A DNA stretch of 64,000 nt from the NCBI RefSeq assembly GCF_024502345.1, contig NZ_JALDNN010000001.1, one strand, 5' to 3'. Shown here in pieces: positions 20,030 through 22,564 of this stretch. The translations under genes were made by a program, and so were the position numbers. Each line of letters starts with the position of its first letter. Positions within the stretch are counted from its first letter, which is position 1. A model generated the notes under the pieces. It was not told where the DNA came from. It searched no databases and worked only from the letters and a program-made list of their open reading frames with translations. This DNA is from Escherichia coli (GTDB lineage: Bacteria > Pseudomonadota > Gammaproteobacteria > Enterobacterales > Enterobacteriaceae).

Positions 20030-20590
20030 TCAAAACTGAAAGCGCATCCAGGCAAAGTACACATTGCCATTGTTGTAGGTACCCGGAATGTAGGTCATCT
20101 GAAAAGTCACTGGGCCATAACCCACGGAGGCCAATGGCAGTAGAACCGGGAGAGGGATGTAATTCCAGTTATCGCGTGCCGTTACGCCAGCGGTGAATCC
20201 CAGACCTAAATGAAAATTTTCATCCGCCAGCGGTCGCCAGGTACTTTCCCATCCGTATCCGGCAATCGGTTCCCATTTGTTCCACGAGTCCTTAAATGCC
20301 ATGGCATACAGGCCATGCCAGTTTCCTTTTTCATCCCAACGCGACAGGCCAAAACCGCCACCCCACGGTCGCTCGTTATAGCGATCGGTTTTTTCTTTGT
20401 CGTAAGCGAAACGTGCATGCCAGGTGATGGCAGGAATATATAAATCATAATGTTCAGGCTGTTGCCAGGTTTGTGCAATATTTTCTCTAAACGTTGTCAT
20501 CCACTCATCTGCGTTAGCAAAAACTTTACCAACGCTGATTAACTGAATAAAAACAAAGGAAAAGATAGCGACATATTTACTCACGTTCAT
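20030..20590 (-). CDS. pagP: lipid A palmitoyltransferase PagP
   Basis: 186 aa starting [16 protein letters not shown]; outer-membrane beta-barrel. Confidence 0.93.
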
Positions 20591-21178
20591 TTGTGACCAT
20601 AAAACATTTATCAAAAATCTACTACTAGCATAGCAAAGCTACAATTAACATAACCTTAATAGACCCAACATAAAGAATAATCTGAATAGCTGCTCTATTT
20701 ATTTCCGCTTGTTCAAGTTAAATATTTCCGCGCATCGATTAAAGATGATGCGTCGTTTTCTGCGATGGGAATAGTCAAAAAAGAAAAACCAAGTCTTTTT
20801 TGATGACAAAATGCAATCAAGGAAAAATTATTTTATTTTTTAACTAGATACAACAATCATCTTAACGAAGTATATAATATAAATCGTCAACCTATGCTCA
20901 TGTTAGATTATTTTTTGAGCGCACAGCCGCAGCTAACACCATTGCAATTAACAAATTTGCATCAATCCACCATCAATTTACACACATTATTATGTGATAA
21001 TTGCCAACCGCTAAATATGCGTTTTGTTATCTATGTATAAAAACAGCAACTTCAATGTCTTAATGGCAGTTTTTCTTGATTTTAATCAGCATTCATCGCC
21101 AATTTATTGGGCATATTTTTTCCTTAAGCTTTAGGAATTTTTTATTATTTACTTTGGGGCCTGGAGACAGGAAAAATT

Positions 21179-22564
21179 ATGCTGACATTCATTGAACTCC
21201 TTATTGGGGTTGTGGTTATTGTGGGTGTAGCTCGCTACATCATTAAAGGGTATTCCGCCACTGGTGTGTTATTTGTCGGTGGCCTGTTATTGCTGATTAT
21301 CAGTGCCATTATGGGGCACAAAGTGTTACCGTCCAGCCAGGCTTCAACAGGCTACAGCGCCACGGATATCGTTGAATACGTTAAAATATTACTAATGAGC
21401 CGCGGCGGCGACCTCGGCATGATGATTATGATGCTGTGTGGATTTGCCGCTTACATGACCCATATCGGCGCGAATGATATGGTGGTCAAGCTGGCGTCAA
21501 AACCATTGCAGTATATTAACTCCCCTTACCTGCTGATGATTGCCGCCTATTTTGTCGCCTGTCTGATGTCTCTGGCCGTCTCTTCCGCAACCGGTCTGGG
21601 TGTTTTGCTGATGGCAACCCTATTTCCGGTGATGGTAAACGTTGGTATCAGTCGTGGCGCAGCTGCTGCCATTTGTGCCTCCCCGGCGGCGATTATTCTC
21701 GCACCGACTTCAGGGGATGTGGTGCTGGCGGCGCAAGCTTCCGAAATGTCGCTGATTGACTTCGCCTTCAAAACGACGCTGCCTATCTCAATTGCTGCAA
21801 TTATCGGCATGGCGATCGCCCACTTCTTCTGGCAACGTTATCTGGATAAAAAAGAGCACATCTCTCATGAAATGTTAGATGTCAGTGAAATCACCACCAC
21901 TGCTCCTGCGTTTTATGCCATTTTGCCGTTCACGCCGATCATCGGTGTACTGATTTTTGACGGTAAATGGGGTCCGCAATTACACATCATCACTATTCTG
22001 GTGATTTGTATGCTGATTGCCTCCATTCTGGAGTTCCTCCGCAGCTTTAATACCCAGAAAGTTTTCTCTGGTCTGGAAGTGGCTTATCGCGGAATGGCAG
22101 ATGCGTTTGCTAACGTGGTGATGCTGCTGGTTGCCGCTGGGGTATTCGCTCAGGGGCTTAGCACCATCGGCTTTATTCAAAGTCTGATTTCTATCGCTAC
22201 CTCGTTTGGTTCGGCGAGTATCATCCTGATGCTGGTATTGGTGATTCTGACCATGCTGGCGGCAGTCACGACCGGTTCAGGCAATGCGCCGTTTTATGCG
22301 TTTGTTGAGATGATCCCGAAACTGGCGCACTCTTCCGGCATTAACCCGGCGTATTTGACTATCCCGATGCTGCAGGCGTCAAACCTGGGCCGTACCCTTT
22401 CGCCCGTTTCTGGCGTAGTCGTTGCGGTTGCCGGGATGGCGAAGATCTCGCCGTTTGAAGTCGTAAAACGCACCTCGGTACCGGTGCTTGTTGGTTTGGT
22501 GATTGTTATCGTTGCTACAGAGCTGATGGTGCCAGGAACGGCAGCAGCGGTCACAGGCAAGTAA
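21179..22564 (+). CDS. dcuC: anaerobic C4-dicarboxylate transporter DcuC
   Basis: 461-aa polytopic membrane protein, uninterrupted; preceded by long AT-rich control region. Confidence 0.95.
   Translation: MLTFIELLIGVVVIVGVARYIIKGYSATGVLFVGGLLLLIISAIMGHKVLPSSQASTGYSATDIVEYVKILLMSRGGDLGMMIMMLCGFAAYMTHIGANDMVVKLASKPLQYINSPYLLMIAAYFVACLMSLAVSSATGLGVLLMATLFPVMVNVGISRGAAAAICASPAAIILAPTSGDVVLAAQASEMSLIDFAFKTTLPISIAAIIGMAIAHFFWQRYLDKKEHISHEMLDVSEITTTAPAFYAILPFTPIIGVLIFDGKWGPQLHIITILVICMLIASILEFLRSFNTQKVFSGLEVAYRGMADAFANVVMLLVAAGVFAQGLSTIGFIQSLISIATSFGSASIILMLVLVILTMLAAVTTGSGNAPFYAFVEMIPKLAHSSGINPAYLTIPMLQASNLGRTLSPVSGVVVAVAGMAKISPFEVVKRTSVPVLVGLVIVIVATELMVPGTAAAVTGK

Follow-up and report, generated by a model that had tools for sequence, protein, structure and literature searches.

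The window, a 64,000-nucleotide stretch of an Escherichia coli genome (RefSeq assembly GCF_024502345.1, contig NZ_JALDNN010000001.1), carries the divergent genes pagP and dcuC, and the open reading frame list together with the K-12 annotation delimits between them a regulatory spacer of 588 bp (20591-21178). The minus-strand gene pagP begins with the ATG at 20590 (RefSeq protein MNVSKYV..., 186 aa) and dcuC, on the plus strand, with the ATG at 21179. The preliminary description had placed the interval at 20615-21178, about 560 bp, having used an in-frame TTG at 20614 as the pagP start; since pagP starts at the ATG, the longer limits apply. Its account of the interval as non-coding, long and AT-rich is nevertheless borne out. 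The GC content of the spacer is 31.3% versus 51.5% for the window, and lower values occur in only 36 of 63,413 sliding 588-bp windows, all of them shifts of this same spacer, which is thus the lowest-GC stretch of the window. No intergenic gap in the K-12 annotation of these 64 kb is longer; the three next longest (378, 374 and 371 bp) are divergent promoter regions too. The K-12 and E. coli genome annotations place no feature inside the spacer. Of 5426 complete E. coli genomes, 5381 carry the spacer; that of the window differs from K-12 MG1655 by 4 SNPs and is 100% identical in O26/O111/O103 strains. Across genera its length ranges from 281 bp in Klebsiella to 588 bp in E. coli; blocks close to the two genes are kept, whereas the centre is conserved in neither length nor sequence, which places both promoters in the outer parts of the spacer.

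On the dcuC side, the preliminary description had reported no perfect FNR box that could be aligned by eye. As regards an alignable box this is incorrect, as TTGATTTTAATCAG at 21076-21089 (plus strand) fits the consensus TTGAT-N4-ATCAA at 9 of 10 positions, its dyad centre (21082.5) lying 96.5 bp upstream of the dcuC ATG. FNR occupies this region in vivo; a ChIP-seq summit upstream of dcuC was mapped to 655,298 on U00096.2 (PMC3688515), which our conversion places at about 21072 of the window, some 10 bp from the site. In the same study dcuC is a Category 1 gene, directly activated by FNR through one site, whose sigma-70 occupancy and mRNA both rise without oxygen (PMC3688515). The site is conserved as well. 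Of 78 Enterobacteriaceae loci, 59 have such a site with at most one mismatch in the 200 bp preceding dcuC, in most cases 90-106 bp before the ATG, versus a background of 0.004 such sites per 200 bp elsewhere in the same 78 loci, and it is kept in 20 of the 33 dcuC loci that have no pagP upstream. The right half-site reads ATCAG rather than ATCAA in nearly all Enterobacteriaceae. The 64 kb as a whole hold nine FNR-type sites with at most one mismatch, versus 2.4 expected. The partial half-sites described earlier are indeed present, but their counts are those of chance for this base composition: six TTGAT/ATCAA in the spacer versus 3.0 expected (P ~0.09) and two TGTGA versus 1.1 (P ~0.29).

Downstream of the FNR dyad lies the block TTATTnGGCAyATT, conserved in Escherichia, Citrobacter, Salmonella, Enterobacter, Lelliottia, Klebsiella, Raoultella and Yokenella, within which we predict the dcuC -10 hexamer CATATT (21112-21117, plus strand). 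The candidates for this hexamer are weak, matching 4 of 6 positions in E. coli and 3 in the majority of other genera. The -10-like block begins 29.5 bp past the dyad centre, a spacing as for class II FNR promoters (-41.5). From the geometry of these two conserved elements we infer a dcuC transcription start at 21124-21127 on the plus strand (656,020-656,023 on the minus strand of K-12), which would put the dyad centre at about -41.5 to -44.5 and leave a 5' UTR of about 52-55 nt. Directly before the ATG is a conserved block with the Shine-Dalgarno region CAGGAA (21168-21173, plus strand), kept in 17 genera or species and reading ACAGGGG in other genera. A start elsewhere, or class I geometry, is possible for dcuC because the entry of Myers et al. 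2013 for this gene reads 'TSS not in peak region' (PMC3688515). The closest known kind are the class II FNR promoters ynfE, nikA, pykA and focA-pflB (~-40.5/-41.5; Myers et al. 2013, Table 1). Like these, dcuC has one near-consensus dyad, followed some 30 bp past its centre by a weak -10, and a -35 cannot be recognised; FNR is bound in vivo and mRNA shows an FNR-dependent anaerobic rise. Unlike these, dcuC has its -41.5 geometry assigned by us from sequence features, carries ATCAG as the right half-site, and is preceded by roughly 140 bp of additional DNA whose conservation is genus-specific. In the proposed mechanism, without oxygen one FNR dimer would bind TTGATTTTAATCAG (21076-21089), in the last ~110 bp of the spacer, and from about -41.5 would bring sigma-70 RNA polymerase to the weak -10 CATATT, which has no usable -35; the transcript would begin at about 21124-21127 with a leader of about 55 nt containing the conserved Shine-Dalgarno. 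The preliminary description had suggested a complex anaerobic promoter. The anaerobic part agrees with the FNR site, the -10-like block and the ChIP-seq and expression data, but complexity is not demonstrable; this would be a simple one-site FNR promoter.

The constraint on the dcuC side reaches further upstream than the promoter itself. The segment 20936-21178 diverges by 0.8-3.3% between alleles of E. coli phylogroups, versus 9.5-17.9% in the adjoining centre, and its upstream 140 bp (20936-21075, taken on the plus strand and delimited by allele divergence) are constrained in E. coli and the genus Escherichia and not beyond; blocks common to Escherichia species are not alignable in other genera. 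A consensus scan finds there an ArcA-like direct repeat, TGTTATCTATGTATAA, at 21025-21040 with 2 mismatches, and Park et al. predicted that the dcuC/crcA spacer contains an ArcA site. These ~140 bp upstream of the FNR site probably hold auxiliary sites, for which ArcA is one candidate.

On the pagP side, we predict an extended -10, TGcTATGCT, at 20627-20635 of the minus strand, whose TGn-TAnnnT pattern is kept in 18 species and which corresponds to the Salmonella -10 TATTAT (PMC3335776). The pagP start would then lie near 20620, giving a 5' UTR of about 30 nt. PhoP boxes were scored as (T/G)GTTTA-N5-(T/G)GTTTA, at or upstream of the -35 and in phase with the -10, and two overlapping candidate readings compete, neither a strong match to consensus. 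The first is the direct repeat TATTAA-GGTTA-TGTTAA (20645-20661, minus strand), 12 nt upstream of the -10; as a PhoP box, TATTAAGGTTATGTTAA has 3 mismatches and is conserved across genera. Its half-sites align with a block conserved upstream of pagP in 18 species, tGTTAAg-N5-ATTcA, and the Salmonella pagP PhoP box CTGTTTATAGTTTGTTAAG, which has been footprinted (PMC3335776), aligns through its second half with the first half-site of the repeat. The repeat also fits the ArcA direct-repeat pattern with 1 mismatch. The other reading, TCTTTATGTTGGGTCTA (20660-20676, minus strand), has 2 mismatches, lies upstream of the first by 1-1.5 helical turns and is conserved less well across genera. Phosphorylated PhoP (PhoP-P) binds the DNA upstream of pagP, shifting the corresponding Shigella flexneri fragment in EMSA, and pagP mRNA is lower in a delta-phoPQ mutant of that species (PMC5775216). 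The nearest known relative is the Salmonella pagP promoter, of PhoP 'architecture IV' (Zwir et al. 2012), which is orthologous in gene and position and shares with E. coli the half-site TGTTAA/TATTAA and the -10 TAnnnT. In Salmonella 23 nt separate the footprinted box from the -10 downstream of it and another box lies beyond, whereas in E. coli the best-phased repeat is 12 nt upstream, more like architecture I/II, and the half-site 11 bp further up is degenerate. In the first ~70 bp of the spacer, a PhoP-type direct repeat may overlap the place of the -35 in a promoter with an extended -10, TGcTATGCT (20635-20627), that would initiate near 20620.

Expression of pagP also depends on H-NS, SlyA and RcsB. 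A pagP-lacZ fusion is up 18-fold in a delta-hns background and SlyA counteracts H-NS, the authors pointing out three SlyA-like sites (PMC4147861); RcsB and GadE are reported to contribute to pagP expression, with RcsB and SlyA as activators. A genomic SELEX table marks the pagP/dcuC spacer as an RpoD-holoenzyme peak with H-NS (PMC3946193). The composition of the spacer, at 31.3% GC the lowest in the window against 51.5% overall and with A- and T-runs in its sequence, is of the H-NS type. Genetics, the gSELEX flag and base composition together suggest that H-NS occupies the spacer core directly. The middle ~200 bp would then serve as a spacer and as a platform for H-NS silencing of pagP, which SlyA and RcsB would relieve, and H-NS on the AT-rich core likely also curbs spurious promoters. 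Other promoters silenced by H-NS and countersilenced by SlyA/RcsB include, besides E. coli pagP itself, those of the K5 capsule, hlyE, and Salmonella pagC and ugtL. The pagP spacer resembles them in its 31% GC, A/T tracts, derepression in delta-hns and dependence on SlyA/RcsB; unlike them, it is ancestral to Enterobacteriaceae and not horizontally acquired, and its AT-rich tract also adjoins an FNR-activated promoter. The preliminary description considered neither the pagP promoter nor H-NS silencing, to which much of what the interval holds would be due.

Allele comparison delimits within the spacer a hypervariable AT-rich core (20736-20935), spacer or H-NS-bound filler. Between the window and an O157-type strain the core diverges by 17.9%, versus 0.2-0.4% in the flanking coding sequences and 0.5-0.8% at their third codon positions. 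Relative to the promoter-proximal parts its divergence is 1.5-5 times as high in all lineage pairs and about 13-22 times as high between the O157-type strain and the window. Among 5,376 genomes the core falls into discrete haplotypes, 14-18% apart between phylogroups; within 5% of a haplotype are ~3,274 genomes of the window type, ~1,029 of the B2/81009 type and ~455 of the O157 type. We favour a core of unconstrained AT-rich DNA that may be near mutational equilibrium; it evolves rapidly and is found in discrete haplotypes.

Does the core rather behave as a horizontally exchanged, 'switched' cassette, with haplotype-specific regulation of pagP/dcuC under diversifying or lineage-specific selection? 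Switched or hypervariable intergenic regions are known from E. coli pan-genomes; regulatory switching has reportedly been described by Oren et al. in 2014, and the Piggy tool by Thorpe et al. in 2018. As in such regions, the flanking genes are conserved and the core exists in discrete, deeply diverged haplotypes with few intermediates, only 10-21 genomes falling in the 90-95% identity band for B2/81009-type and O157-type queries. The O157-type core, 17.9% off despite near-identical flanks, is moreover a mosaic that implies recombination breakpoints within the spacer. However, the haplotypes are collinear homologues about 14-18% apart and not unrelated replacements, only ~200 bp are affected, and both promoters lie outside. 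The core is homologous and collinear in all Escherichia species and merely faster in every pair, as expected for unconstrained DNA; in the B2 allele its excess over third-position divergence is only ~1.5-2.8-fold; no conserved motif tells the haplotypes apart; and recombination that homogenises conserved flanks and stalls at the divergent core explains the mosaic equally well. We consequently hold the cassette to be unlikely. Somewhat less likely still, and offered as speculation, is that the core is a lineage-specific module whose haplotypes (A/B1, B2, E/O157, others) determine how strongly H-NS silences, or how much spurious or antisense transcription arises, an Ssr31-like RNA included (see below); if this were true, palmitoylation of lipid A (pagP) and/or efflux of succinate (dcuC) would be tuned differently by core haplotypes in commensal and pathogenic phylogroups.

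The spacer had also been considered large enough for an unannotated small RNA, and such an RNA has been proposed in Shigella flexneri, where Wang et al. 2016 list Ssr31 as a computational candidate in the pagP/dcuC spacer, 295 nt as predicted, with a promoter and terminator pair and RT-PCR 'Yes' (PMC4782007). The forward primer matches exactly at 20661 and the reverse primer lies at about 20830-20850 with a difference in the length of a T-run, so that the equivalent of the amplicon is 20661-20850 on the minus strand (primers of PMC4782007). An E. coli counterpart, encoded in the central spacer on the pagP strand, would further agree with the sigma-70-like hexamers of the core, ATGACA-17-AATTAT (20803-20831, plus strand) and TTAAGA-17-TAAAAA (minus strand), pairs that were proposed from gSELEX (PMC3946193), and with the long intergenic location, which together with one published candidate giving an RT-PCR signal recalls intergenic Hfq-type sRNA genes. 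The Shigella RT-PCR over 20661-20850 does attest to some transcription of the core. The signal of Ssr31 is, however, an RT-PCR product, not shown to be strand-specific, that read-through, a long leader of pagP or spurious transcription would equally yield. Both hexamer pairs are mutated in other alleles (O157, B2), and nowhere is the spacer conserved less than here, with 14-18% divergence between phylogroups and no compensatory pattern. Rfam searches of the spacer at E up to 10 return nothing beyond two matches at chance level (E 1.9 and 3.8), both to unrelated families and far under gathering scores, and the sequence folds no better than shuffled sequence (MFE z -0.58 for the minus strand and -1.29 for the plus strand). 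The sole terminator-like hairpin from a consensus scan, GCGCATCGATTAAAGATGATGCGT followed by CGTTTTC (20730-20753), shows its T-run solely on the plus strand, opposite to Ssr31. As a terminator it fails within E. coli, its 3' arm reading ATGTAT, ACACAT or ATGCAT in other alleles while the 5' arm is invariant and no change compensates; we judge it a chance feature. The spacer thus differs from Hfq-type sRNA genes, which have their own promoter and a Rho-independent terminator, in having no conserved terminator, structure or seed-like block, no Rfam family and a high sequence turnover. The 3'-end tables of Adams et al. do not mention pagP/dcuC, and the supplements on Shigella M90T give only read counts for dcuC. 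A small RNA gene here is very improbable, and this suggestion of the preliminary description finds no footing in the sequence. A small protein is less credible than that. Five open reading frames of 35-48 codons lie in the spacer and two with TTG starts, 21024-21134 and 21076-21195, are intact in all four alleles compared, but these two sit in promoter DNA conserved for other reasons, have no Shine-Dalgarno, overlap the FNR site and the -10, and begin upstream of the predicted dcuC start, while the three in the variable part are disrupted in other E. coli alleles by stops, loss of the start or a frameshift; we give this reading almost no weight at all.

Nor do other regulators alter the picture. 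The earlier statement that there is no perfect CRP box is correct: the dyad TGTGA-N6-TCACA is absent from the spacer, the best match, TGTGATAATTGCCAAC, having 3 mismatches in 10 and only one good half-site. Likewise, the spacer contains no exact NarL heptamer (TACYYMT), with single-mismatch matches scattered, so that the scan for FNR, CRP and NarL motifs that had been proposed yields the FNR site and no CRP or NarL site. Consensus scans for CRP, NarL, IHF, EvgA, RcsB, SlyA and the GAD box return weak matches only, typical of AT-rich DNA. Two further candidates, an A/T-only perfect inverted repeat at 20775-20803 and the 18-bp palindrome TTCCTTAAGCTTTAGGAA at 21120-21137, are conserved neither beyond E. 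coli nor among its alleles. A sigma-70 consensus scan gives 2 promoter-like sites versus 4.7 in shuffled sequence, that is, fewer, and promoter crowding is therefore unsupported. A sigma-54 (RpoN)/NtrC-dependent promoter would account for the RpoN holoenzyme, NtrC and combined gSELEX peaks between dcuC and pagP (map position 655,760; PMC8743547), but the GG-N10-GC core occurs on neither strand of 20561-21208, TGGCAC-N5-TTGCW is matched at best with 3-4 mismatches and without the invariant dinucleotides, and SELEX with naked AT-rich DNA in vitro readily enriches sequences non-specifically. Such a promoter is highly improbable. The RpoN/NtrC peaks themselves are not explained by a model of FNR, PhoP and H-NS.

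Given the above, we read the interval, with a probability of roughly 85%, as a shared divergent control region of pagP and dcuC, in which an FNR promoter and a PhoP/H-NS promoter face away from each other with fast-evolving filler between. It is an ordinary spacer of a known regulatory kind, largely described before. If this reading is right, little changes: there are two published inputs, FNR on dcuC and PhoP, H-NS, SlyA and RcsB on pagP, and an unconstrained spacer. Phylogenetic footprinting locates the dyad, -10 and leader of what is probably the FNR-dependent promoter of dcuC; within the FNR peak, Myers et al. 2013 gave no start for it. The core is an example of within-species hypervariability beside strongly constrained promoters, and its variability is relevant to pan-genome analyses of intergenic regions and to reporter constructs that carry the pagP/dcuC spacer.

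The window, from E. coli, runs in reverse of K-12 MG1655 (K-12 coordinate = 677,147 minus window position), and the neighbourhood carries crcB, cspE, pagP on the minus strand, dcuC on the plus strand and dpiA/dpiB. In RefSeq, pagP begins with the ATG at 20590; therefore the spacer between the divergent pagP and dcuC spans 20591-21178, 588 bp. The preliminary description had placed it at 20615-21178, with the correct end, but with a start that followed an in-frame TTG upstream of the RefSeq ATG. Its impression of an unusually long and AT-rich interval is borne out. The GC content is 31.3% versus 51.5% for the window, with lower values in just 36 of 63,413 equal-length sliding windows, each overlapping the spacer region, and no other intergenic gap is as long in the equivalent 64 kb of K-12, where the next three (378, 374 and 371 bp) are likewise divergent promoter regions. 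It differs from K-12 at 4 positions, is 100% identical in several O26, O111 and O103 strains and is found in 5,381 of 5,426 complete E. coli genomes, the match being absent in 45; no annotated feature lies under it. In the urinary isolate E. coli MINF_8D (locus L005, NZ_LR890606.1, 3001-4252), the spacer is cut down to its first 150 bp, which an IS1 and then citC follow; dcuC, dpiA and dpiB have thus been lost, apparently through IS1. Outside the spacer, the cspE mRNA matches the cspA thermoregulator family of Rfam (RF01766; 19598-20040, minus strand, 124 bits, E 6e-33), as expected for a cspA paralogue.

The half-sites noted previously are present, but at chance level for the composition (TTGAT/ATCAA, 6 versus 3.0 expected; TGTGA, 2 versus 1.1). 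The accompanying statement that no perfect FNR box could be aligned by eye overlooked a full dyad, TTGATTTTAATCAG, that matches 9 of 10 consensus positions at 21076-21089. Among 80 dcuC loci sampled as species representatives across Enterobacteriaceae, 78 have enough upstream sequence, and 59 of these 78 carry an FNR site with at most one mismatch less than 200 bp from the dcuC start codon, nearly all at 90-106 bp upstream and nearly always as TTGAT-N4-ATCAG; the background frequency in the remainder of these loci is 0.004 per 200 bp. The site persists in 20 of 33 dcuC loci in which pagP is not the neighbour, and therefore belongs to dcuC. In the window as a whole, FNR-consensus matches with at most one mismatch number 9 versus 2.4 expected from shuffles, those besides that of dcuC lying at 417-434 (two overlapping), 7776, 17046, 30293, 37676, 39644 and 52351.

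Alignment of the last 190 bp on the dcuC side from 17 species reveals two further conserved blocks, the Shine-Dalgarno region and TTATTnGGCAyATT, which begins about 20 bp past the dyad. The latter contains a predicted dcuC -10 element, CATATT (21112-21117), starting 29.5 bp downstream of the dyad centre, which is where the -10 hexamer is expected in a class II FNR promoter (site at -41.5). Given this spacing, we predict that dcuC transcription starts near 21124-21127, with a leader of about 55 nt. A consensus scan of the spacer finds no CRP site and an exact-match scan no NarL heptamer, in agreement with the result ascribed to Zientz and colleagues (1999), by which dcuC is reportedly FNR-dependent and not glucose-repressed. 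Between U00096.2 and the newer genome version we take the offset to be +777 bp, arising from IS1 and 1-bp differences; converted with this assumed offset, the FNR ChIP-seq summit for dcuC falls at about window position 21072, 10 bp off the dyad centre. The summit itself, at 655,298 in U00096.2, comes from Myers et al. (2013, PMC3688515), who list dcuC as a directly FNR-activated operon with one site, annotate its entry as "TSS not in peak region" and find both sigma-70 occupancy and dcuC mRNA increased without oxygen. Thus, of the complex anaerobic promoter that had been suggested, the promoter exists, as conserved dyad, ChIP-seq and induction without oxygen indicate, but it is simpler than supposed. 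Upstream of the dyad, about 140 bp (20936-21075) hardly vary between E. coli alleles and are kept in part within the genus, but not outside it.

On the pagP side, the direct repeat tGTTAAg-N5-ATTcA and, after it, TGn-TAnnnT are common to 18 species upstream of the gene. On the minus strand of E. coli these correspond to a PhoP-box-like repeat, TATTAA-GGTTA-TGTTAA (20661-20645), and a predicted extended -10 of pagP, TGcTATGCT (20635-20627). In an alignment with Salmonella (PMC3335776), the first half-site of the repeat falls on the second half of the footprinted PhoP box, and the -10 on TATTAT; an alternative PhoP-box reading, TCTTTATGTTGGGTCTA, has fewer mismatches but lower conservation. In Shigella flexneri, PhoP-P shifts a pagP upstream fragment and pagP mRNA is lower in delta-phoPQ (PMC5775216). 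In E. coli K-12, delta-hns derepresses pagP 18-fold (PMC4147861), and a genomic SELEX table places an H-NS flag and an RpoD-holoenzyme peak in the spacer (PMC3946193). Induction of pagP in biofilm requires SlyA, with RcsB and GadE as further inputs. RcsB control of E. coli pagP has been shown genetically; Enterobacter mori (TAAGAATATTCTC, locus L037) and Lelliottia (TAAGAATATTCCC, locus L022) have near-perfect RcsB-box-like sequences some 100-115 bp ahead of pagP, and E. coli has no counterpart at that position. An ArcA site has been predicted somewhere in the dcuC/crcA spacer (Park et al. 2013), where a motif scan finds weak ArcA-like repeats. The direct repeat TATTAAGGTTATGTTA (20645-20661, minus strand) fits both the PhoP box and, with 1 mismatch, the ArcA pattern TGTTA-N6-TGTTA, and may be that predicted site. 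RpoN and NtrC SELEX peaks have also been reported in the spacer (PMC8743547); they are not backed by the sequence, as the interval holds no GG-N10-GC core.

Between the two promoter regions lies a hypervariable core: in a four-allele E. coli alignment, differences are concentrated at about 20736-20935. Compared with an O157-type strain, the core diverges by 17.9% (36 of 201 positions) versus 0.4% for pagP, 0.2% for dcuC, 0.5-0.8% for third codon positions and 0.8-1.4% for the promoter-proximal parts. Core divergence is about 1.5-5 times that of the two promoter-proximal parts in every lineage pair, other Escherichia species included, and about 13-22 times in the pair of O157-type strain and window. 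Across 5,376 genomes the core haplotypes are discrete, with few intermediates; within E. coli they lie 14-18% apart. The contrast between core and flanking genes in the O157-type strain places recombination breakpoints inside the spacer; the mosaic may have come about either by import of the core or by homogenisation of the flanks. Across genera the spacer measures between 281 bp (Klebsiella) and 588 bp (E. coli). Since the promoter-proximal blocks are kept across genera and the centre is not, neither promoter seems to require the additional DNA of E. coli. Five other pagP-dcuC spacers, from Enterobacter and one Citrobacter (loci L019, L037, L046, L047 and L050), are much longer, at 694-899 bp, and richer in GC (0.40-0.47); in L050, 334 bp separate the FNR site from the ATG, suggesting an insertion of DNA or an additional gene.

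Might the core encode a small RNA, as the preliminary description proposed for the interval? Wang et al. (2016, PMC4782007) list Ssr31 of Shigella flexneri, a computational candidate of 295 nt between pagP and dcuC on the pagP strand, with RT-PCR scored "Yes", and its primers map to 20661-20850; that RT-PCR, however, would also pick up a long pagP leader, read-through or the spurious transcripts that are frequent in AT-rich DNA. No part of the core resembles a gene. It has no Rfam match, and the folding energies of both strands fall within the shuffled distribution. Its sole terminator-like hairpin loses the 3' arm in other alleles without compensation, its ORFs are broken in other E. coli alleles and the SELEX-proposed sigma-70-like hexamers carry mutations in the O157 and B2 alleles. 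With structural and conservation tests negative, we consider a core-encoded counterpart of Ssr31 very improbable, and the small RNA proposal is left without support. The 10-mer directly before the dcuC start codon, AGGAAAAATT (21169-21178), has an exact copy 349 bp upstream in the core (20820-20829); there, ATT and a 5-codon frame come next, so this copy probably arose by chance in DNA so rich in A and T.

The spacer is thus a known kind of element whose regulators are already published, to which we add where the FNR-dependent dcuC promoter probably lies and that the core is hypervariable. On the simplest reading, this core would be AT-rich DNA free of constraint and close to mutational equilibrium, which may also serve as a platform for H-NS.
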